Of a DNA stretch of 64,000 nt, positions 2,870-17,985 are shown one piece after another. This DNA is from Rubrivivax sp. Its GTDB lineage: Bacteria > Pseudomonadota > Gammaproteobacteria > Burkholderiales > Burkholderiaceae_C. Location of the stretch: contig JBGAGI010000007.1 of NCBI GenBank assembly GCA_044226775.1, positions 275,879 through 339,878 of the forward strand, read 5' to 3'. Both the position numbers and the translations under genes were made by a program. Each line of letters begins with the position of its first letter. Position 1 is the first letter of the stretch. The notes beneath the pieces were generated by a model. The model ran no database searches. It was not told where the DNA came from and saw only the letters and a program-made list of their open reading frames with translations.

Positions 2870-4216
2870 TCAGCGCGGCCGCAGGATCAGCGGCAGGCCA
2901 TCCTTGTGGCGCGGGATCGGCAGCATCGCCACCTCGCCCTGGTAGCCCGCCGGCAGCGAGAGGTCGAAGCGCGACAGCAGGTGCGCCGTGAAGGACTTGG
3001 CCTGGATGTAGGCGAAGTTCAGGCCGATGCACTGGTGCGCGCCACCGCCGAAGGGCAGCCACGCGAAGCGGTGGCGCTTGTCCTCGGCGCGCTCGGGCGA
3101 GAACCGCAGCGGATCGAAGCGCCATGGGTCGCTCCACAGCGACGGCATCATGTGCGTGAACGCCGGGCTGATGGCGATCATCGTGTTGGCGGGAACGTCG
3201 AAACCGCCGAACGAGAAGGGCTTCAGGCTGCAGCGGTTGATGGTGACCACCGGCGGATACATCCGGAGCGCTTCCTTGAAGCAGCACTCGGTCAGCGGCA
3301 TCCGGTCGAGGTCCTCGAAGCGCAGCGGCAGCGGCAGCGCGGCACATTCGTCGCGCAGGCGTTGCTGCCACTCGGGCTGCTGCACGATCGACCACATCAT
3401 CGTGCAGATCGAACTGGTGGTCGTGTCGTGGGCGGCACCCATCATGAAGACCGCGTGCTTGGCGATGTCCTCGTCGCTCCAGTGCCGGCCCTCGTCGTCG
3501 GTGGCCTGGCACAGCCGGGTGAAGATGTCCTTGCCCTGCCCTTCGCGGCGCGAGCGGATGTTGGCCTTGATGTAGTTCAGCAGCCACTGCCGGCCCTGCA
3601 GGCCGCGCTGGTAGGTCAGGCCCGGAATCCGCAGCCGCACCAGCGACACCGTGGCGGCGATGACGGCGATGAACTCCTGCTTGATCTTGCGGATGTCCAC
3701 CGCGTCCTGCTCGCCGAGGAAGACCCGCATCGACACTTCCAGCAGCAGTTCCTTGACGGCCGGGAAGAACAGCGGCGGCGGCGCGGCCCGCCAGGCCTCG
3801 AGGCGGGCCGCGATGATGGGCTGCATCTCCTGCAGGTACTCGGCCAGCGTCGACACCTTGAACGCAGGCGCCATCACCTTGCGGTGCGCCCGGTGCTCGT
3901 CGAAGTCGCGCAGCATCAGCGCGCCGTTGACCAGGGTCTCCAGCGAGCGCCAGCCCAGGCGGTTGGAGAAGACCTGGTCCTTGTCGGTGAGCACGAGTTC
4001 ATTGGCCTCGGGGCCCAGCAGCGAGACACGCACGTCGCCCAGCACCTTGAGCTTGTGCACCGGCCCGTAGGTCGCATGCATGCGCGCCTGCAGGCCCCGG
4101 TAGTCCCGCAGCAGCTCCCAGGTGTGGCCGACGAAGGGCCAGCCCTGGTCGCCGGGAATGACCTTCAGCTCGGCGCTGCCCGCCCGCACGAACGCGTCGG
4201 CCGTTCCGGTGCTCAT
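2870..4216 (-). CDS. Cytochrome P450, 448 aa
   Basis: I-helix GAAHDTTTS, ExxR motif KEALR, heme-ligand motif PFGGGAHQCIG. Start MSTGT at 4216 preferred over 4255. Confidence 0.93.
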   Translation of the reverse strand: MSTGTADAFVRAGSAELKVIPGDQGWPFVGHTWELLRDYRGLQARMHATYGPVHKLKVLGDVRVSLLGPEANELVLTDKDQVFSNRLGWRSLETLVNGALMLRDFDEHRAHRKVMAPAFKVSTLAEYLQEMQPIIAARLEAWRAAPPPLFFPAVKELLLEVSMRVFLGEQDAVDIRKIKQEFIAVIAATVSLVRLRIPGLTYQRGLQGRQWLLNYIKANIRSRREGQGKDIFTRLCQATDDEGRHWSDEDIAKHAVFMMGAAHDTTTSSICTMMWSIVQQPEWQQRLRDECAALPLPLRFEDLDRMPLTECCFKEALRMYPPVVTINRCSLKPFSFGGFDVPANTMIAISPAFTHMMPSLWSDPWRFDPLRFSPERAEDKRHRFAWLPFGGGAHQCIGLNFAYIQAKSFTAHLLSRFDLSLPAGYQGEVAMLPIPRHKDGLPLILRPR

Positions 4217-8571: not shown

Positions 8572-8614
8572 TATACATATGGTCTTGACAGCGGATGATA
8601 TGTGTAGATACCAT
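8572..8614 (+). promoter_or_regulatory. Sigma70 promoter (TTGACA-N18-TACCAT) overlapped by an inverted repeat, probable MarR operator
   Basis: TTGACA at 8585-8590 and TACCAT at 8609-8614. Inverted repeat TATACATAT (8572-8580) / ATATGTGTA (8598-8606), one mismatch, brackets the -35 box. Confidence 0.7.
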
Positions 8615-8669
8615 TCATCCATGCGCCGGCCATCCGTCCGAAGCGCGGTTCAACCCAAGGAGACAGGCG

Positions 8670-10580
8670 ATGCAGTTCTACAAGAACGGCTTTCGAGGCG
8701 GAAACCCCGATGTCAAGGCGCCCGCGCCGAACCGCCGCAACCGCGGCCCGAACGAACCGCTGCCGGAGAAGGTGGACGTGCTGATCGCCGGCACCGGCCC
8801 GGCCGGCCTTTGCCTGGCGGCGCAGCTGGCGCAGTTCCCCGGCATCGAGACGATGATCGTCGAGCGCATGCCCAGCAACATCGTCAAGGGCAAGGCCGAC
8901 GGCATCAACACGCGCACGATGGAGATGTTCCAGGCCTTCGGTTTTGCCGACAAGGTCAAGCGCGAGACCTACTGGGTGAACCAGACCAACTTCTGGATGC
9001 CCGACCCGGCCCGCCCCGAGCACATCCGGCGCGTGGGCCGGGTGCAGGACGTGGCCGACGACAGCTCCGAGATGCCGCACATCCTGATCAACCAGGCACG
9101 GCTGCACGAGCTGTTCCTCGAGGTGATGAAGAACTCGCCTTCGCGGCTGGAGCCCGACTACAGCTGGGAGATCGTCGGCCTGAGCGTCGACCCGACGACC
9201 GACGATCACCCGGTGACCGTGACGCTGAAGGACGCCAGCGGCGTGAACTGGTGGGCCACGCGCACGGTGCGTGCGAACTACGTGGTGGGCTGCGACGGCG
9301 CGCACTCCGCGGTGCGCAAGGCCATCGGCGGCGTGCTGCACGGCGACGCCGCCAACCAGGCCTGGGGCGTGATGGACATCCTGGCCAACACCGACTTCCC
9401 CGACGTGCGGCAGAAGTGCCTGATCTCCTCGGCCAGCGAAGGCAACGTGCTGATCCTGCCGCGCGAGGGTGGCTACGTGTTCCGCATGTACGTGGAACTC
9501 GACAAGCTCAGGCCCGACGAGAAGGCGGCCAGCCGCAAGTTCACCCAGGACGACATGATCGCCGCGGCCAACCGCATCATCCGGCCCTACTCGATCGACG
9601 TGAAGGAGGTCGTCTGGTGGTCGATCTACGACATCGGCCACAGCATCACCGACAAGTTCGACGACGTGCCCGAGGGCTCGAGCCGCAACCCGCGCGTGTT
9701 CACCGCCGGTGACGCCTGCCACACCCACTCGCCGAAGGCGGGCCAGGGCATGAACGTCTCGATGCAGGACACCTTCAACCTGGGCTGGAAGCTGGTGCAC
9801 GTGCTGCAGGGCCGGGCCGATGCGAGCCTGCTGCGCAGCTACTCACGCGAGCGCCTGACCGAGGCCCGCCGGCTGGTCGAGACCGACCACGAGTGGGCGC
9901 GAATCATGTCGGCGCCCACCACCCAGGCGGAGCGCGACGGCACGGAAGAGCCGCGCATCATCCGCCAGTTCAAGGCGAACCTGGAGTTCACCGGCGGCGT
10001 CGCCGTCAGGTACGACGCGTCGGCCCTCTTCGCCGCGTCGCCGCACCAGGCCCTGGCCCGCGGCCTGGAGATCGGCCGCCGCTTTCACTCTGCGCCCGTG
10101 GTGCGCGTGTCGGACGCCAAGCAGATGCAGCTGGGCCACGTGGCCGAGGCCGACGCGCGCTGGCGCCTCTATGCCTTCGCCGGCAGGTCCGACGGTTCGA
10201 ACCCGGGTTCCGCCATCCACCGGCTGGCGGACTGGCTGGAGCGGGACCCGGCGTCACCGGTGGTCCGTCACCGGCGGGAAGGCGAGGACGTCGACGCGGT
10301 GATCGACTTCCGCGCCGTCTTCCAGCAGACCTTCGACCAGCTCGCCTACGAGAAGATGCCGTCGCTGCTGAAGCCGCAGACCGGGGCGCTGGGCCTGCAG
10401 GACCACGAGAAGGTCTTCTGCGTCGACCACAAGGGCGTGGGCGACATCTTCGAGATGCGCGGCATCGACCGCGAGCGCGGATGCATGGTCGTCGTGCGGC
10501 CCGACCAGTACGTCGCGCATGTGCTGCCGCTGGACGCACGCGAGGACCTGAGCGCGTTCTTCGCCGGCATCCTGCGCTGA
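8670..10580 (+). CDS. FAD-dependent aromatic hydroxylase, 3-hydroxybenzoate 4-hydroxylase (MobA)/phenol 2-monooxygenase family, 636 aa
   Basis: AAGGAG RBS. MQFYKNGFRGGNP start, GTGPAG FAD motif, KADG, VVGCDGAHS, GDACHTHSPKAGQGMN, C-terminal thioredoxin-like domain ending VVVRPDQYVA. Confidence 0.88.
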   Translation: MQFYKNGFRGGNPDVKAPAPNRRNRGPNEPLPEKVDVLIAGTGPAGLCLAAQLAQFPGIETMIVERMPSNIVKGKADGINTRTMEMFQAFGFADKVKRETYWVNQTNFWMPDPARPEHIRRVGRVQDVADDSSEMPHILINQARLHELFLEVMKNSPSRLEPDYSWEIVGLSVDPTTDDHPVTVTLKDASGVNWWATRTVRANYVVGCDGAHSAVRKAIGGVLHGDAANQAWGVMDILANTDFPDVRQKCLISSASEGNVLILPREGGYVFRMYVELDKLRPDEKAASRKFTQDDMIAAANRIIRPYSIDVKEVVWWSIYDIGHSITDKFDDVPEGSSRNPRVFTAGDACHTHSPKAGQGMNVSMQDTFNLGWKLVHVLQGRADASLLRSYSRERLTEARRLVETDHEWARIMSAPTTQAERDGTEEPRIIRQFKANLEFTGGVAVRYDASALFAASPHQALARGLEIGRRFHSAPVVRVSDAKQMQLGHVAEADARWRLYAFAGRSDGSNPGSAIHRLADWLERDPASPVVRHRREGEDVDAVIDFRAVFQQTFDQLAYEKMPSLLKPQTGALGLQDHEKVFCVDHKGVGDIFEMRGIDRERGCMVVVRPDQYVAHVLPLDAREDLSAFFAGILR

Positions 10581-10606: not shown

Positions 10607-11414
10607 TCAGTCGGCGCGATTGCCCCAGGTCCCCAGGTTCGCCGCCTTCAGCAGCGGCGACGCGTGGCCCGCCAGCGCCATCTCTGCCGCGGTGCCCAGC
10701 AGCTCCGGGCCGAAGGCCAGCATGCGTGATTCGGTCAGACGCATCGAGGGCCCGGCGATGACCACCACGCCCGTGGCCTGTTCGCCCTTGCGCTGAACGG
10801 GTGCGGCCATCGAACTCATGCCGCGCGCATAGACGTCGCGCGCCATGCTGAAGCCGCGCTTCCGGTGCTCCTGCAGCATCTTCAGCAAGGCCTTGATCGT
10901 CGTCGGCGCGTTCGGGCCGAAATGCGCAGGGTCGCCGAAGCCCTGCCGGGTGACGGCCTGGATCGCCTTCTCCTCGGGCAGCGTCATCAGCCAGGCGTGG
11001 CCGGCGGCACTGCAGGACAAGGTCAGCTCGATGCCCAGTCAGGGTCGTACAGCAGGCCCGACTTCGCCCCCTGCGTCTTGGCCACGAGCGTGAAGCGCTC
11101 GCCGTCGACGATCGCCAGGCGCACCAGCTCCTCCGTCGTGCGCGCGAGGCGGTCGATCATCGGCTGCGTGATGTCGACGACGCCGCACTTGCTGAGGAAG
11201 CTCAGGCCCATCGACGCGAGCTTGGTGGTGAGCGCGCAGTCGCCGCGCTGCGGCATCTGGCGCACGTAGCCGTAGCGGATGAGCTCGTGCAGCGTGTGGT
11301 GGCAGCCGCTGCGCAGCTGGTTGAGCTCGCCCGCGATGACCGACAGCGCCACGCCCTCGGGATGAGCCGCGAGGTACTCCAGGATCGAGAGGGATTTCTC
11401 CAGCGCACCGCTCA
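10607..11414 (-). pseudogene. IclR-family regulator, frameshifted and lacking its ATG
   Basis: HTH half (SGALEKSLSILE...GYVRQ...YDPD) and effector half (LTLSCSAAGHAWL...SSMAAPV...VVIAGP) are in different frames. Restoring one A between 11038 and 11037 gives YDPD-M-GIELTLSCSAAG. The expected ATG-AGC-GGT start reads CTG-AGC-GGT. Confidence 0.75.
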
Positions 11415-11867
11415 GGCGAAGCAGCACACAGCGTTCATTTCGAGGACGATGTCCGCAAAAGCACCGACCCGCGCCCCACCGGCAAGGTGGTGGTCACGCT
11501 CGCCGCCCAGGACCAGCCCGGCGCGCTGGCCTTCGTGCCCAGCGTGCTGAACATGCGGCCGGCCAACGGCATCTTCACCAGCGTTCAGGGCCTCGTCACC
11601 GCGAGCTTCAGGCTGCCCGCGGGCCATGTGCTGGACGGCAGCGCCAGCGTGCAGCTGAAGACGCCGCTCACGCAGCAGCTCTTCGGCGCGGTCTCGGCCA
11701 CGAACTCGCCCGACGGCCGCACGCTGCTGATCACCTTCGACAAGGGGTTGATCGACAACAACGTGCCCGCCGGCGACGCGGTACCGCTGACGGTGTCGGC
11801 CAACTTCATCAGCGGCGGCGTGCAGAAGAAGCTGTCCGCGACGGACAACGTGCGCGTCGTGAAGTGA
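11415..11867 (+). pseudogene. Probable 3' remnant of a larger gene (beta-rich, Ig-like C-terminal domain)
   Basis: The frame of ORF 11487..11867 stays open upstream to the IclR junction (GEAAHSVHFEDDVRKSTDPRPTGKVVVT...) with host-like codons; no RBS before the GTG at 11487 and no signal peptide. Confidence 0.5.
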
Positions 11868-11898: not shown

Positions 11899-12582
11899 AT
11901 GAAACATGTCCTGATCGCGTGGCTCGCCGCGCTGGCCCTGTGCAGCGGCGCGCACGCCGGCCCGCTGACGCTCTTCAATGTGCAGGCCGAGGCCACGGCG
12001 GTGGCCCTCACCTCGGATGGAGCGGCCGGCTTCGCCAGCCAGTCGGGGCCGCTGGGTACCGGCCGCTTCACGCAGTCGGCCGACTCGGTGGGCCTCGGCG
12101 ACGTGGCGACGGCCGGCGCCGTGGTGGGCCTCGGGCTGCTGAGCACCTCGGCCGGCGCCTCGGCCAGCGGCTTCGGCAGCGCGGTGTCGACGGCCCGCCT
12201 GGTCGGCTCGTTCGTCAACGCGGGTGTGGTGAGCCTGGACATCGACTTCGGCACGAGCAGCTTCAGCGACGGCTCGGGCGGCGCGTCGACGACGCTGTTC
12301 GTGCGGCTGGTCAGTGACGGCATCACGCTGTTCTCGGACTACGTCACCGATGCCTGGCACATCGACCACACGCCACTCTTCGGCAGCACCAGCGTGCTGG
12401 ACCTGACGCTGAGCAGTGAGGCCAGCGCGGCCTTCCTGTCCGCCGGCGCGGGCAACGCGAGCAGCTTCGGCCTGGCCACGATCACCAGCAGCGTGCCCGA
12501 AAGCCCGACCTGGCTCTTGTGCGCGCTGGGCCTGGCCCTGCTGTCGGCCTCACGATCGAAGCGCCAGCGCGCGTCTTCGTGA
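11899..12582 (+). CDS. PEP-CTERM-type surface protein, 227 aa
   Basis: Signal peptide ending AHA, Ser/Gly/Ala-rich body, C-terminal VPESPT + hydrophobic helix + basic tail (RSKRQR). Confidence 0.8.
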   Translation: MKHVLIAWLAALALCSGAHAGPLTLFNVQAEATAVALTSDGAAGFASQSGPLGTGRFTQSADSVGLGDVATAGAVVGLGLLSTSAGASASGFGSAVSTARLVGSFVNAGVVSLDIDFGTSSFSDGSGGASTTLFVRLVSDGITLFSDYVTDAWHIDHTPLFGSTSVLDLTLSSEASAAFLSAGAGNASSFGLATITSSVPESPTWLLCALGLALLSASRSKRQRASS

Positions 12583-12771
12583 ACCAGGGCGTGGCGGCAA
12601 AGAAGCCATGCCCGCGCATCGAGCCGTGGAGATGGCAGCCCGGACCGATGGGCCCGGCTGCCTGAACGGCGACTTCCGCGCCTTGCGGCCCGGGCTTTTG
12701 CACCGCATCGCGCCAGCGTGGCGCCGAGCCGGAACGCGAAGCCCGCACCCCGGCCACGGAGCGCATCGTCG

Positions 12772-13614
12772 CTAGCGCCGCGCGACGCGTGCCATCCCGT
12801 CCAGCGTGAACGTGAAGCTGCTCCGGTCCAGCGGCTTGTGGCAGGCCAGGCAGTCGGCCTGGTGCACGCCGGCCCGGGCTTCCCGCGCGGGCGTGTAGAC
12901 GGCGTAGTTCCAGTCCTCGTTGCGCAGCATGTCCGGGATCGCGGCCCCCCAGCCGGCACCGCGCTCCATCACCGCGTAGGCGACGAGCTTGTCGCGTTCG
13001 TAGAAGCCGTCGGCACCGGCCACCGGCTTCCTGTCGGCGTCCAGCCTGGCGGCGTGCTGCTCCATCACCAGCACGCTGCCGTCCGGCAGCGGGCGGCCGT
13101 CGCGCGCGGCCTGCAGCGCCACGGCGTTGGCGTACAGGTGGCGCACCTGGCCGAGGTCGGGCCGGTTGACGGCCTGGTACATCGTGAAGCCCGCCGGGTA
13201 GCCCGCCGGCAGCGCCGCCTGGCTGCGCGCCAGCGCGGGCAGGAAGGCGGACTTCGCCGACGCACCTGCCGGCGCCAGACTTGCAAAGTACGCTGACAGA
13301 TTGACGATGTCGTCCGGGCCGAGCTGCGCGGCCATCGCGTTCATCGATGGGGCCTTGCGCGTGCCTGCCTTCAGCGCCCGCAGCTGGCCCTCCAGGTAGG
13401 CGGCGCGCTGGCCGGCGAGGTTGGGGATGTTGTCGGCCACGCTCTGCCCGTTGGCGCCATGGCAGGCGGCGCAGACGCTGGTCGCGCGCGCCCGACCCGC
13501 CTCCAGGTCGGCGGCATCGGCCGCGATCGCTGACCAGGCCAGGGCTGCCGCCACCAGGGCCGGGCGGGCACCGAGTGCGGCCCAAGAACAGGCGCGAGTG
13601 CTTGACGGGTTCAT
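12772..13614 (-). CDS. Di-heme fusion: class I cytochrome c553-like domain + cytochrome P460/c'-beta-family domain, 280 aa
   Basis: AAGGAG RBS and signal peptide. CAACH...PNLAGQ...SMNAMA (His/Met c553-like), then PLPDGSVLVMEQH, EDWNYAVY and C-terminal CLACH (P460 superfamily pattern). Confidence 0.8.
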   Translation of the reverse strand: MNPSSTRACSWAALGARPALVAAALAWSAIAADAADLEAGRARATSVCAACHGANGQSVADNIPNLAGQRAAYLEGQLRALKAGTRKAPSMNAMAAQLGPDDIVNLSAYFASLAPAGASAKSAFLPALARSQAALPAGYPAGFTMYQAVNRPDLGQVRHLYANAVALQAARDGRPLPDGSVLVMEQHAARLDADRKPVAGADGFYERDKLVAYAVMERGAGWGAAIPDMLRNEDWNYAVYTPAREARAGVHQADCLACHKPLDRSSFTFTLDGMARVARR

Positions 13615-13644
13615 CGAAGCTCCTTGTGGATCGATGGAGCCCGA

Positions 13645-13670
13645 TACGCAGCGCGGCGCCGGCCGGATGC
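13645..13670 (-). promoter_or_regulatory. ECF-type promoter GCATCC-N16-CGTA upstream of the cytochrome gene
   Basis: Minus-strand GCATCC (13670-13665) and CGTA (13648-13645), exactly 16 nt apart. Confidence 0.75.
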
Positions 13671-13683
13671 GCCGCCGCGCAGC

Positions 13684-14193
13684 TCAGCGAATCGACGCGC
13701 CTTGGGCCAGATGACGCTGCAGCCCCGCTTCGCCGGCGCGCATCACGCCATCGTGATTCCATCGGAACACCGGGGCGAGCAGCGGCGCCAGCCAGCGCAT
13801 CCAGCGCTTGACCAGCCGCACGCGCCACACGTAGGTCACGTCGGTGAACCCGTCCTCGGCTCGCAGCAGCCACAGCCCCTCGCCGTCGAGCTGCCCGCGC
13901 GAGCGACCACGCAGGCGCTGATGCCGTATCGACTCGACGGCCTCGACCTCGATCACGATCCGGTACGGCAGCCGCGTGGACCAGTCGATGCGGCGCACGC
14001 TGCCGAGGCCGTCGGTGCCGCCCTCGCGCAGTGTCTGCACCTGCTGCACGCAGGGCCACCAGGCGGGCCAGCCGGCGGGGTCGGCCAGCGCGGCCCAGAC
14101 CTCGTCCACCGGGGCCCGCAGGCGCCAATGGCTCACGAGGTCGAAGTGACCGGAAGACGGGGCGCTCGGGAGCCTGGCGGCGCTGCGGGGCAT
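13684..14193 (-). CDS. SRPBCC/START-like protein, 169 aa
   Basis: APVDEVWAALADPAGWPAWWP and WNHDGVMRAGEAGL patterns typical of SRPBCC/polyketide cyclase-like proteins. Confidence 0.8.
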   Translation of the reverse strand: MPRSAARLPSAPSSGHFDLVSHWRLRAPVDEVWAALADPAGWPAWWPCVQQVQTLREGGTDGLGSVRRIDWSTRLPYRIVIEVEAVESIRHQRLRGRSRGQLDGEGLWLLRAEDGFTDVTYVWRVRLVKRWMRWLAPLLAPVFRWNHDGVMRAGEAGLQRHLAQGASIR

Positions 14194-14224
14194 GGCATGG
14201 GTTGGAAGGCCTTGTGCCCCTGAC

Positions 14225-14250
14225 TACGCGCCGGGCGGCACCTCGGATGC
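14225..14250 (-). promoter_or_regulatory. ECF-type promoter GCATCC-N16-CGTA upstream of the SRPBCC gene
   Basis: Minus-strand GCATCC (14250-14245) and CGTA (14228-14225), 16-nt spacer. Confidence 0.75.
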
Positions 14251-14279
14251 CGGCCTGCCGGTGCCGGCGCGGCGGCCCT

Positions 14280-14305
14280 GCATCCGGATCGCGGCCTCAT
14301 GCGTA
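14280..14305 (+). promoter_or_regulatory. ECF-type promoter GCATCC-N16-CGTA upstream of the cupin-sigma-cupin operon (autoregulatory candidate)
   Basis: GCATCC 14280-14285 and CGTA 14302-14305, 16-nt spacer; ATG at 14314 implies a near-leaderless transcript. Confidence 0.75.
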
Positions 14306-14313
14306 ATGCCAGC

Positions 14314-14718
14314 ATGGATCCCACCGACGACCCCGGCCGCGTGCACTCGATCCGCCGGCGCCTGATGGAGCGCGTGGCCGACGCCGACGACACGCACGTG
14401 ACGATCGCGGGCGACGAAGGCGAATGGCGGCCGTTCGTGGACGGCGTGCGGATCAAGGTGCTTCGCGAGCAGGCCGGCGTGTTGTCGTACCTGCTTCGCC
14501 TGGAACCGGGTGCCCGACTGCCGCCGCACCGCCATCCGCATGACGAGGAGTGCGTCGTCATCGAGGGCAGCCTGCGGGTCGGCACGGGCCAGGCATTCGG
14601 CCCCGGCAGCTACCACCTGGCGCACGGCGGTGCGCTGCACGCGACGGTCTGCACCGAGACCGGCGCCACGATCTTCCTGCGCGGCGCGGTGCCGCAGGCC
14701 GGGCAGGTCCTGGCATGA
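14314..14718 (+). CDS. ChrR-like cupin protein, 134 aa
   Basis: PPHRHPHDEECVVIEG...H cupin metal motif; W..F..G...KVL pattern. Start at 14314 chosen because 14299 lies inside the promoter. Confidence 0.8.
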   Translation: MDPTDDPGRVHSIRRRLMERVADADDTHVTIAGDEGEWRPFVDGVRIKVLREQAGVLSYLLRLEPGARLPPHRHPHDEECVVIEGSLRVGTGQAFGPGSYHLAHGGALHATVCTETGATIFLRGAVPQAGQVLA

Positions 14719-15500
14719 AGGTCCCCCAAGCGCACGAACGAACGCCGCATCGAGAGAGTTGCCGCATGAACGCTGCCCTGACATCCCCTGACGACGACCC
14801 GCACGCGCAGCCGCTGCCCGAAGCCGACGACGGTCCCGGCGCGACCGGCTGGCCCGCGGTGGCTGAGGACGCCGGCGACGAGGACGACGCGGCCGCCGGC
14901 CCCGCGTTGCGCGCCACGGCAGCGGCCGCGACCGAGGCGCAGATCGCGGCGTGGATCGAAGCGATCGTCGAGCGCGACGAGCGGGCGCTGGCGGCACTGT
15001 ACGACGCGACCTTCTCGCGCGTGTTCGGCCTCGTGCGGCGCATCGTGCGCAGCAGCGCGCTGGCGGAGGAGGTGGTCGAGGACGCCTACTTCCAGGTCTG
15101 GCGGCAGGCGGCGCGCTTCGATCCGGCGCGTGGACGGGCGCTGACCTGGCTGCTGGGCATGGCCCGATCGCGCGCCATCGACACGCTGCGAAGGGAAGCA
15201 CGCTTCGCCCACGAGGCGCTGGACGACGAAGGCCACCCGGAACCCACCTGCGCGCAGCCCGAGCAGGACGAGCTGCTGGACCTGGCACGCCAGCGGGCCG
15301 ACCTGCACCAGGCCCTGATGCTGCTGGGCGCGCAGCCGCGGCAGCTGGTCTCGATGTCGTTCCTGCGCGGGCTCAGCCACGAGGAGATCGCCGAGCAGAT
15401 GGGCCTGCCGCTGGGCACGGTGAAGTCGCAGATCCGGCGCGCGCTGCTGGCGCTGCGCGAGGCGCTGGCCGACCCTGCCGCACGGCTGCTCGCCTCGTGA
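14715..15500 (+). CDS. ECF RNA polymerase sigma factor (alternative start 14766)
   Basis: Region 2 DERALAALYD...AEEVVEDAYFQVW...RFDPARG..LTW...ARSRAID; region 4 GLSHEEIAEQMGLPLGTVKSQIRR. ATG 14715 overlaps the cupin stop (ATGA). Confidence 0.93.
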   Translation: MKVPQAHERTPHRESCRMNAALTSPDDDPHAQPLPEADDGPGATGWPAVAEDAGDEDDAAAGPALRATAAAATEAQIAAWIEAIVERDERALAALYDATFSRVFGLVRRIVRSSALAEEVVEDAYFQVWRQAARFDPARGRALTWLLGMARSRAIDTLRREARFAHEALDDEGHPEPTCAQPEQDELLDLARQRADLHQALMLLGAQPRQLVSMSFLRGLSHEEIAEQMGLPLGTVKSQIRRALLALREALADPAARLLAS

Positions 15501-16399
15501 AGGCCAGCGCTCCCGCACCGCATCCACCGAATCAGGACCCTACTGCCATGGCCCCCAGCCGCCTGCCGCTTCGCTTCGAACCCGCACCCGACCCGGTGGA
15601 TCCGGACCTGGAGCCGCTGCTGGGCGAAGCCTTTGCCGCCGCCTGGTCGGCCGAACCCGGCGCACGGTGCTTCGACCCCGAGCCGCTGCGCCGGCGCCTG
15701 TTCGAGCGCCTGGCCGCCTCGAAGGCCGCGTCGGCCGGCATGGTCACGGCGCGCTGGCGGCACGCCGGCGGCGTGGAGGTCGCGGCAGGCGTGTCGGTGC
15801 GCACGCTGTACGAGGCGCCGTCGGGGCGGCCGCTGCGCCCGGGCGAGCCGCTGCGGGCCAGCCTCGTCGAACTGCAGCCCGGCGCCCGCTGGGCCGGCCC
15901 CGGTACGGATTACCACCGCGAGTGGCTGGTCCTGCGCGGCGCCGCCAGCGTGGGCGCCACGGCCCTGGCGCTGCGCGACTATCGCGTCACGCCTGCAGGC
16001 CTGGCGGCCGAAGCCGTGCACAGCGAGCCCGGCGCATGGCTGTTCCTGCGTGAATCGCTGCTGCCGAGCCAGGGCCCGGCCGAAGCCTTCACCGTGCACG
16101 ACGACGAAGCCGGCTGGCCGGACTTCGCGCCAGGCATCCGCCGCCGCGTGCTCTGGCAGCACGAGGGACAGGCCGCGCTGCTGTACTGCGCCGAGCCCGG
16201 CGCCTCGGTACCGCTGCACACGCATGGCCACGACGAGGAATGCCTGATGGTGCAGGGCGAACTGTTCCTCGACGACATCCTGCTGCAGCAAGGCGACTAC
16301 CAGCTGGCGCCGGCGGGCACGGGCCACCGGCTCACCGAGACCGACACCGGCGTGGTGATCTACGCGCACGGCGACCTCGACCTGAGGTTCGTCGGCTGA
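15497..16399 (+). CDS. ChrR-like anti-sigma candidate with a degenerate and an intact cupin domain (alternative start 15548)
   Basis: GTGA overlap with the sigma stop. Helix PEPLRRRLFERL; C-terminal cupin PLHTHGHDEECLMVQG...H; no HxxxCxxC zinc motif. Confidence 0.78.
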   Translation: MKASAPAPHPPNQDPTAMAPSRLPLRFEPAPDPVDPDLEPLLGEAFAAAWSAEPGARCFDPEPLRRRLFERLAASKAASAGMVTARWRHAGGVEVAAGVSVRTLYEAPSGRPLRPGEPLRASLVELQPGARWAGPGTDYHREWLVLRGAASVGATALALRDYRVTPAGLAAEAVHSEPGAWLFLRESLLPSQGPAEAFTVHDDEAGWPDFAPGIRRRVLWQHEGQAALLYCAEPGASVPLHTHGHDEECLMVQGELFLDDILLQQGDYQLAPAGTGHRLTETDTGVVIYAHGDLDLRFVG

Positions 16400-16419
16400 A
16401 GCCGCAGGGCGAGCCGGGC

Positions 16420-17985
16420 TCACTCCCACTCGATCGTCGCCGGGGGCTTGCTGCTCACGTCGTAGGCCACGCGGTTGATGCCGCGCACCTCGTTGATGAT
16501 GCGGCTGGAGACCTTCTTCAGCAGCGCGTAGGGCAGCTCGGCCCAGTCGGCGGTCATGAAGTCGCTGGTTTCCACGGCGCGCAGCGCGACGACGTAGTCG
16601 TAGGTGCGGCCGTCGCCCATCACGCCCACGCTCTTGACCGGCAGGAAGACGGCGAAGGCCTGGCTGACCTTGTCGTACCAGCCGGCGGCCCTGAGTTCCT
16701 CGATGAAGATCGCGTCGGCCCGGCGCAGCAGATCGGCGTACTCCGGCTTCACCTCGCCCAGGATGCGCACGCCCAGGCCCGGGCCCGGGAACGGGTGGCG
16801 GTAGACCATTTCATGCGGCAGGCCGAGCGCGACGCCCAGTTCGCGCACCTCGTCCTTGAACAGGTCGCGCAGCGGCTCCAGCAGCTTCAGGCCCAGCGTC
16901 TCGGGCAGGCCACCGACGTTGTGGTGGCTCTTGATCGTCGTCGCCTTCTTGGTCTTCGCGCCGCCGGACTCGATCACGTCCGGGTAGATCGTGCCCTGCG
17001 CCAGCCACTTCGCGTTCGACAGCTTCTTCGCCTCGGCCTGGAACACCTCGACGAACTCGCGGCCGATGATCTTGCGCTTGGCTTCCGGGTCGCTCACGCC
17101 CTTCAGGTGGCCGAGGAACTGCGCGCTGGCGTCGACGTGGATCACCTTCGCGTGCAGCCGGCCGACGAACATCTCCATCACCATCTGCGCCTCGTTAAGG
17201 CGCAGCAGGCCGTGGTCGACGAAGACGCAGGTGAGCTGCTCGCCGATGGCGCGATGGATCAGCGCCGCGGCCACGCTCGAATCGACGCCGCCCGACAGGC
17301 CCAGGATCACTTCCTCGCTGCCCACCTGCTCGCGGATGCGCGCGACCGCCTCCTCGACGTGGTCGCGCATCACCCAGTCGGGCCTGGCGCCGGCGATCTG
17401 CAGCACGAAGCGCTCCAGCAGCTGCCGGCCCTGCACCGTGTGCGTGACCTCGGGGTGGAACTGCACGCCGTAGTAGCGGCGACTCTCGTCGGCCATGCCG
17501 GCGATGGGGCAGCTCGGCGTGCTGGCCATCAGCTTGAAGCCGCCGGGCAGCGCGGTGATCTTGTCGCCGTGGCTCATCCACACCTTCAGCATGCCGTGGC
17601 CTTCAGGCGTGCGGAAGTCCTCGATGCCGTCGAGCAGCTTCGTGTGCCCGTGCGCGCGCACCTCGGCATAGCCGAACTCGCGGTGCGTGCTGGCCTGGAC
17701 CTGCCCGCCCAGTTGCACGGCCATCGTGAACATGCCGTAGCAGATGCCCAGCACCGGCACGCCGAGTTCCCACACCGCGTGCGGCGCGCGAAGCTCGTGC
17801 TCCTCGTAGGTGCTGGCGTGGCTGCCCGACAGGATGATCGCCTTGGGCGCGAAATCGCGGATGAACGCGTCGCTCACGTCGTTCGGGTGGATCTCGCAGT
17901 AGACATGCGCCTCGCGAACGCGGCGCGCGATGAGCTGCGTGACCTGCGAGCCGAAGTCCAGGATCAGGATCTTGTCATGTTGCAT
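16420..17985 (-). CDS. guaA: GMP synthase (glutamine-hydrolysing)
   Basis: [37 protein letters not shown]-terminal KPPATIEWE. Confidence 0.99.

Follow-up and report, generated by a model that had tools for sequence, protein, structure and literature searches.

Two described kinds of extracytoplasmic function (ECF) sigma factor system are closest to the locus analysed here, a cupA-sigma-cupB operon with an SRPBCC gene and a cytochrome c-P460 gene on the opposite strand, found in a 64-kb window (the whole stretch of DNA that was analysed) of contig JBGAGI010000007.1 from a Rubrivivax sp. One kind is the ECF11 group, to which RpoE-ChrR of R. sphaeroides and PSPTO_1043/1042 of P. syringae belong. 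The regulator ChrR combines a cupin, which serves as the sensor, with a zinc anti-sigma domain, the clamp that binds sigma, and the ECF11 core regulon consists of phrB, cfaS and the genes for a short-chain dehydrogenase and an amine oxidase. The other kind is the SigK-RskA/RpoT type of the ECF18 and ECF19 groups, in whose classical members the gene for an RskA-type anti-sigma factor overlaps the stop codon of the sigma gene. Deducing an ECF regulon from a recurring promoter box is reportedly routine, as in the work of Staron in 2009, Rhodius in 2013 and Todor in 2020.

The locus in the window probably forms a small regulon with positive feedback, governed by a SigK-type (ECF18/19-like) sigma factor with cupin partners. 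It resembles the SigK-RskA/RpoT systems in the best sequence match of its sigma factor, in the promoter TGCATCC-N16-CGTA(T), in its predicted autoregulation and in having a small local regulon, made up of genes that are divergent or adjacent. In contrast to those systems, the sigma gene is flanked by genes for soluble ChrR-type cupins in place of an RskA-like membrane anti-sigma gene, the sigma factor lacks the typical Cys pair and carries an acidic N-terminal extension of about 55 residues, and the targets are genes for SRPBCC, hydrolase, SnoaL and cytochrome proteins rather than for fasciclin, DUF1295 and methyltransferase proteins. With the ECF11 systems the locus shares the ChrR cupin domain (Cupin_7), a soluble cytoplasmic regulator (putative in the window), the hexamer-N16-CGTA promoter architecture and the ATCC core of the -35 box (TGATCC versus GCATCC or GAATCC), and RpoE is the second-best match of the window sigma in the PDB. 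However, the first two positions of the -35 box differ, the partners lack the N-terminal zinc anti-sigma domain, and the locus encodes a bicupin as well as a second cupin protein.

Promoter boxes in the window and in related loci

The window, with a G+C content of 70.8%, contains three exact copies of GCATCC-N16-CGTA, all within 660 bp and beside the ECF sigma gene. The original prediction had listed these three copies, with their common 16-nt spacing and mutually unrelated spacer sequences, and all of this was confirmed at each position. Only 0.08 such copies are expected by chance, and three were reached in none of 100 dinucleotide-preserving shuffles; a refined form of the motif, GMATCCR-N15-CGTA, returns the same three sites with 0.05 expected. 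No match to GCATCC/CGTA with a spacer of 12 to 20 nt other than 16 exists anywhere in the window, and the 6 further sites in the window with one mismatch correspond to chance (3.8 expected). Each box stands upstream of a start codon, also as predicted, the gap between the end of CGTA and the ATG being 30 nt for the cytochrome gene (ATG at 13614), 31 nt for the SRPBCC gene (ATG at 14193) and 8 nt for cupA (ATG at 14314). The boxes of the SRPBCC gene and of the operon are divergent, with their -35 elements back to back and 29 bp between them. Scans of positions 12300–16600 for sigma-70 promoters and intrinsic terminators found nothing. The regulon had been called complete, which is unjustified because just 64 kb of the 495-kb contig were scanned.

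The recognition sequence itself is already known. The published consensus is xGCATCC / xxCGTATx for ECF18 and xGTGATC / xxCGTATA for ECF11 (PMC13492112), and the ECF11 sigmaE-ChrR motif, supported by chromatin immunoprecipitation sequencing, is TGATCC-N16-CGTA (PMC5507510), which agrees with the promoter type named for sigmaE-ChrR in the original prediction. The boxes of the window and its relatives have GCATCC or GAATCC as the -35 element, not the TGATCC of ECF11, and conform to the GCATCC/CGTAT consensus of ECF18/ECF19. They reveal no new sigma specificity, since the motif equals the ECF18 consensus (PMC13492112) and is also present in SigK-RskA cassettes. These cassettes came to light when plasmid-borne sigma relatives at 37–38% identity were inspected for the motif. 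A Pantoea fasciclin-sigma-anti-sigma cassette, which has the classical SigK arrangement, carries TTGCATCC-N16-CGTAT before the fasciclin gene, and a Burkholderia sigma-anti-sigma-DUF1295-methyltransferase cassette carries CTGCATCC-N16-CGTAT both before the sigma gene and before the DUF1295 gene. Because the motif occurs in SigK-RskA-type cassettes as well, it is the general SigK/ECF18-19 promoter. A SigK-like sigma gene in an unannotated megaplasmid record of Variovorax paradoxus (L161), with a product only 37% identical to the window sigma, is flanked by two divergent pairs of G(A/C)ATCC-N16-CGTA boxes (2358–2413 and 3849–3898), four boxes in all.

A scan of one genome per species yielded a comparison set of 80 loci (728 kb) encoding sigma relatives of 40–77% identity, from Rubrivivax, Ideonella, Piscinibacter, Roseateles, Aquabacterium, Leptothrix and Sphaerotilus and, more distantly, the Methylophilaceae. 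These loci hold 112 exact copies of the motif at a spacer of 16 nt and 0–3 copies at each other spacer from 12 to 20 nt, so that the other spacers serve as an internal control. The base before GCATCC is T in 79 of 115 motif copies, and the base directly after it is a purine in every copy. Operon-upstream regions that lack an exact box, including many cupA promoters, usually contain GAATCC-N16-CGTA instead; the working consensus is therefore T-G(C/A)ATCC-R-N15-CGTA. The low-G+C Methylophilaceae have TTGCATCC-N15-CGTATA and TGCATCT-N16-CGTATA upstream of the sigma gene.

Of 43 loci compared, among them the window, 42 have the motif, in its GCATCC or GAATCC form, ahead of cupA, and 19 of 34 have it no more than 330 nt ahead of the SRPBCC gene. 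Most of the genes that it faces belong to a few families: sigma (28 copies), SRPBCC (25) and cupA (23), followed by alpha/beta-hydrolase (10), SnoaL_2 (6), Tat-signal ferritin-like/DUF4439 (5) and TonB-dependent receptor genes (2), while the genes faced only once include those for DUF3455, DUF4198, a flavin adenine dinucleotide (FAD) oxidoreductase and the cytochrome of the window. Motif, 16-nt spacing and orientation are kept upstream of orthologous sigma operons and SRPBCC genes, which supports the promoter role and the autoregulation proposed for these boxes. In the window and its orthologues, the sigma operon is thus preceded by what is predicted to be an autoregulatory bipartite promoter with a CGT-type -10 box, as expected of an ECF sigma factor. 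In many relatives (L004, L005, L007–L009, L012–L014, L018, L025, L028, L033 and others), a second SigK-type box lies between cupA and the sigma gene, so that sigma can be transcribed without cupA; the window has no box in the corresponding gap of 47 nt.

The position of the box relative to cupA is also conserved. Among the 42 motif-bearing loci, CGTA is followed by the cupA start codon after 8 nt in 32, after 9 nt in 9 and after 11 nt in 1, with the 8-nt class counted after discounting upstream alternative starts, and the base before the start codon is nearly always C. By comparison, the separation of the divergent boxes varies among relatives from 12 to 44 bp. Since a fixed distance of 8–9 nt leaves no space for a ribosome-binding site, the simplest reading places the transcription start on the A of the ATG, and the autoregulated cupA-sigma-cupB mRNA is accordingly predicted to be leaderless. 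Leaderless mRNA is unusual for a betaproteobacterial ECF operon, and this operon geometry looks new. For leaderless ECF promoters, a pyrimidine-purine step and a start at A have been reported, and leader lengths of ECF promoters peak at 20–40 nt (PMC7776599), a range with which the gaps of 30–31 nt at the SRPBCC and cytochrome promoters agree. Judged from the sequence only, the promoter geometry is the strongest argument for the boxes being promoters, and the three boxes of the window very probably are promoters of the adjacent autoregulated sigma factor.

The sigma factor and its cupin neighbours

Membership of the window sigma in the ECF (group IV) sigma-70 family is clear from Pfam (Sigma70_r2, 5e-16; Sigma70_r4_2, 8e-14; Sigma70_ECF) and from NCBIfam model TIGR02937 (93 bits, with a cut-off of 42.9). 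In the PDB it matches SigK of M. tuberculosis best (4nqw, 3.6e-28), followed by RpoE of R. sphaeroides (2q1z, 5e-24). The label of a sigmaE-ChrR (ECF11) factor given to it earlier had to be abandoned, as the best PDB match (4nqw) and the best NCBIfam match are both SigK; we call the protein SigK-like, an assignment made by best matches and lying below the curated SigK cut-off. A cysteine pair (C133 and C183 of M. tuberculosis SigK) is typical of the ECF18/ECF19 groups (PMC7509140). No Cys is invariant among 19 orthologues of the window sigma, which itself has one Cys, situated in a variable linker. The N-terminal extension (window 14766–14930) is acidic, proline-rich and of low complexity, and it is present in every orthologue although its sequence varies. 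This extension, which looks new, could serve in autoinhibition or in binding a partner.

Wherever sequence beyond the sigma gene is available, the next gene is in essentially every case a cupin gene, for a bicupin in the Burkholderiales and for a single cupA-like cupin in the Methylophilaceae; cupA lies upstream of sigma in 38 of 74 loci. The RskA-like gene that directly follows sigma in ECF18/ECF19 systems is missing, and in essentially all loci a gene for a soluble cupin protein, a bicupin in the window, takes its place. In cupB the metal ligands H224, H226, E230 and H260 are invariant, together with C232, and so are two N-terminal segments, PAPDPVDxELEPLL and LRxRLLERLAAS. Its AlphaFold2 model (mean predicted local distance difference test, pLDDT, 82.6) predicts two cupin barrels after helices 19–33 and 45–63, these helices being of low to moderate model confidence. 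The top Foldseek match of this model is 3o14_A (E 3e-15), a bicupin from Marinobacter (Maqu_0586) deposited as anti-ECF sigma factor ChrR. The two proteins are alike in their bicupin fold (template-modelling score of 0.80 on the target; profile E 3.9e-6) but differ in that they share 20% identity and in that cupB has about 65 additional N-terminal residues. Each half of cupB can be aligned with cupA, the shared RRRLxER helix included; cupB thus resembles a tandem duplicate of a cupA-like unit (helix plus cupin), in which barrel 1 would have lost the His/Glu metal ligands and barrel 2 would have kept them, along with Cys232. In public annotations these proteins are named just cupin or quercetin-dioxygenase-like.

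Of the two parts of an ECF11 partner, the zinc anti-sigma domain and the cupin, only the latter is present, and no HxxxCxxC motif is visible in the N-terminus of cupB. Synteny and fold nevertheless make cupB a candidate cognate regulator of sigma, and we consider it somewhat better than an even chance that the cupins are the cognate regulators. A ChrR-type cupin that follows a sigma gene and has no detectable anti-sigma domain looks new; a literature search for Cupin_7, DUF4437, 3O14/Maqu_0586 or cytochrome P460 together with a sigma factor found nothing relevant. We suggest, tentatively and at slightly less than even odds, that throughout this clade (Rubrivivax, Ideonella, Piscinibacter, Aquabacterium and the Methylophilaceae) SigK-type sigmas are under the control of a previously unrecognised class of soluble, stand-alone metal-cupin regulators of the ChrR type, a single cupin and a duplicated bicupin, which would have no class-I anti-sigma domain and would contact sigma by way of short N-terminal helices, the module being expressed from a leaderless, self-amplifying operon.

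Predicted targets of the regulon and neighbouring genes

The gene identities proposed earlier (a di-haem cytochrome, a START-fold protein and a cupin-sigma-cupin operon) were upheld by Pfam and NCBIfam (Table 1). An alternative cupA start at ATG 14299 was rejected because it overlaps the -10 box and orthologues start 8–9 nt after CGTA. Likewise, a sigma start at 14715 was rejected in favour of 14766, because the N-terminal MNA encoded there is invariant in the orthologue alignment. The next gene after cupB is guaA, which is convergent.

Table 1. Predicted promoters and genes of the sigma locus, in window coordinates
Feature	Position	Strand	Description	Pfam match
Predicted promoter of cytochrome gene	13645..13670	-	exact motif; within 69-bp gap directly after SRPBCC stop codon
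Predicted promoter of SRPBCC gene	14225..14250	-	exact motif; divergent from operon promoter
Predicted promoter of cupA-sigma-cupB operon (putatively autoregulatory)	14280..14305	+	exact motif; -35 GCATCC 14280-14285, -10 CGTA 14302-14305
Cytochrome c-P460 fusion	12772..13614	-	280 aa	Cytochrome_P460 1.8e-21, Cytochrom_C 5.5e-10
SRPBCC (START/Polyketide_cyc2)	13684..14193	-	169 aa	Polyketide_cyc2 3.4e-13
cupA	14314..14718	+	134 aa; N-terminal helix and ChrR-type metal cupin (HRHPHDEE...H)	Cupin_7 7.5e-20
ECF sigma	14766..15500	+	244 aa; SigK/ECF18-19 type	Sigma70_r2, Sigma70_r4_2
cupB	15548..16399	+	283 aa; soluble bicupin	Cupin_7 1.8e-17, C-terminal

The original prediction defined the local regulon as the cytochrome plus the START-fold protein, and these two parts fared differently. 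The SRPBCC gene, which is divergent from the sigma operon in 33 of 74 loci and whose family is faced by 25 motif copies, is by these counts a conserved local target; no informative solved relative of its product was found, the best being CalU16 (E 0.005). The cytochrome, in contrast, is sporadic: a box is found upstream of 2 of the 68 orthologues with upstream sequence, which is still above chance. We therefore rejected it as a conserved regulon member and regard it, on this distribution, as a lineage-specific recruit, and the pattern suggests that recruitment of this cytochrome gene to SigK-type regulons has been independent or patchy. Genes recruited in other relatives include those for alpha/beta-hydrolase, SnoaL and ferritin-like proteins. 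The two boxes, G(C/A)ATCC-N16-CGTA in each case, lie about 90–100 nt upstream of the orthologue in the metagenomic loci L085 (243–268) and L091 (2749–2774). No terminator-like site was found between the SRPBCC and cytochrome genes, so read-through from the SRPBCC promoter across the 69-bp gap into the cytochrome gene is possible. As for the ECF11 targets, photolyase and cfa genes are missing from the motif-faced genes of the 80 loci, in none of which a phrB, cfaS, short-chain dehydrogenase or amine oxidase gene adjoins the motif.

Behind an N-terminus that resembles a signal peptide, the cytochrome combines a class-I cytochrome c domain (CAACH) with a P460 domain of full length (CLACH), and is predicted to be a periplasmic di-haem protein. 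It belongs to the cytochrome P460 family, as PF16694 is covered in full length and CLACH is aligned to the haem motif of the P460-domain protein 7s5o, its best PDB match (1.4e-22), which is followed by cytochrome c4 (4e-22). In metagenomes from soil and water, fusions of this cytochrome c-P460 type are common; at least 278 relatives were found.

Two features elsewhere in the window were noted in passing. An IclR-family gene (10607–11427, minus strand) is split at about position 11020 into two open reading frames (ORFs) in different frames, one encoding HTH_IclR and the start of IclR_C and the other the remaining part of IclR_C, which points to one of three things: a frameshift, a pseudogene or an assembly error. 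This gene adjoins the gene for a phenol-hydroxylase-type FAD monooxygenase (8595–10580). In addition, the product of an ORF on the plus strand (11899–12582) is a secreted protein that ends in a PEP-CTERM-like sorting tail (VPESPTWLLCALGLALLSASRSKR) and has no Pfam match.

Mechanism, alternative explanations and significance

In the mechanism that we propose, RNA polymerase carrying the window sigma would recognise T-G(C/A)ATCC-R-N15-CGTA and would start transcription from about 8–9 nt after CGTA. It would do so at three promoters: that of its own operon, cupA-sigma-cupB, where the first ATG would coincide with the predicted start site and the mRNA would be leaderless; that of the divergent SRPBCC gene; and that of the cytochrome c-P460 gene directly behind it. 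The soluble ChrR-type cupins may hold or modulate sigma through their N-terminal helices, and sigma would be released when the metal site of the cupin senses an oxidative, nitrosative or small-molecule signal. We infer that it is the adjacent sigma, rather than a paralogue, that reads the boxes.

Several observations weigh against this mechanism. The top NCBIfam model of the sigma factor, SigK (PRK09646), scores 148 bits against a cut-off of 226, and the margin between SigK (102 bits) and RpoE of R. sphaeroides (88 bits) is modest. No RNA runs contain the window, which comes from a metagenome-assembled genome (MAG) of a bioreactor, and the metatranscriptome runs that share words with the relative L009 provide contigs of 150–190 nt scattered over the operon, with no 5'-end information. 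Two MAGs carry duplicate sigma-cupin modules, each with the same motif (L003 and L010 in DAORNK01, L024 and L030 in DYOR01), so cross-recognition by paralogues is possible. As regards the partners, no anti-sigma domain was detected in cupA or cupB, whose Pfam and NCBIfam matches cover the cupin part alone; their N-termini match no anti-sigma or zinc-finger family in Pfam at E<=10; and TIGR02451 and the ChrR chains 2q1z_B and 2z2s_B align over the cupin alone in a profile search against the PDB. Because no anti-sigma domain was found, it is synteny and fold resemblance that argue for a regulatory role of the cupins.

The duplicate modules bear directly on one alternative, namely that the boxes, though true SigK-type promoters, are used chiefly or additionally by a different SigK/ECF18-type sigma factor encoded elsewhere, which would likewise fit the occurrence of the motif throughout the SigK-like clade, down to sigmas 37–38% identical to that of the window. 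We consider this improbable, as the three copies in the window all cluster at the window sigma gene, the motif tracks the orthologous sigma through the 80 loci, and the ORFs examined at 10.5–18.5 kb of the window include no second sigma gene. Far less probable still is that the motif is not a promoter at all but a repeat that arose by chance or an operator bound by some regulator. The divergent -35 boxes do form a short inverted repeat, GGATGC-N29-GCATCC; however, the low chance expectation, the strict 16-nt spacing, the constant orientation towards a gene and the identity with a published ECF promoter consensus (PMC13492112) all speak for promoters, as does a distance to the cupA ATG that stays fixed while the gap between the divergent boxes does not.

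A different question is whether the cupins control sigma or are ordinary products of its regulon, such as metal-dependent enzymes or stress proteins, in which case control of sigma would fall solely to its own transcription, its acidic N-terminal extension or some factor not linked to the locus. This alternative, which we regard as unlikely though a serious one, draws on the lack of a detectable anti-sigma domain, on the public names of the cupins and the strict conservation of their metal ligands, as in enzymes, and on the conserved length of the N-terminal extension of sigma. Against it stands the position of a cupin gene directly downstream of sigma in essentially every locus of both the Burkholderiales and the Methylophilaceae, an arrangement that typifies a cognate regulator. 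The cupins are, moreover, of the ChrR sensor type (Cupin_7), with a ChrR-annotated bicupin as the nearest structure, and the low model confidence of the conserved N-terminal helices of cupB is what would be expected of a segment that folds on its partner. On balance we infer a regulatory role for the cupins, and with it the kind of signal sensed.

With its motif already catalogued, the mini-regulon itself is ordinary, and what would matter is the swap of the partner: a sensor-type cupin kept without its clamp, next to a SigK-like sigma factor. If the cupins control sigma, they would link a sensor of metals or oxidants to an ECF sigma factor in a new manner, and the locus would offer a compact soluble set of sigma factor, regulator and promoter for synthetic circuits. 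The link to the cytochrome c-P460 gene gives a testable clue to when P460-type haem proteins are expressed in Burkholderiales that do not nitrify.

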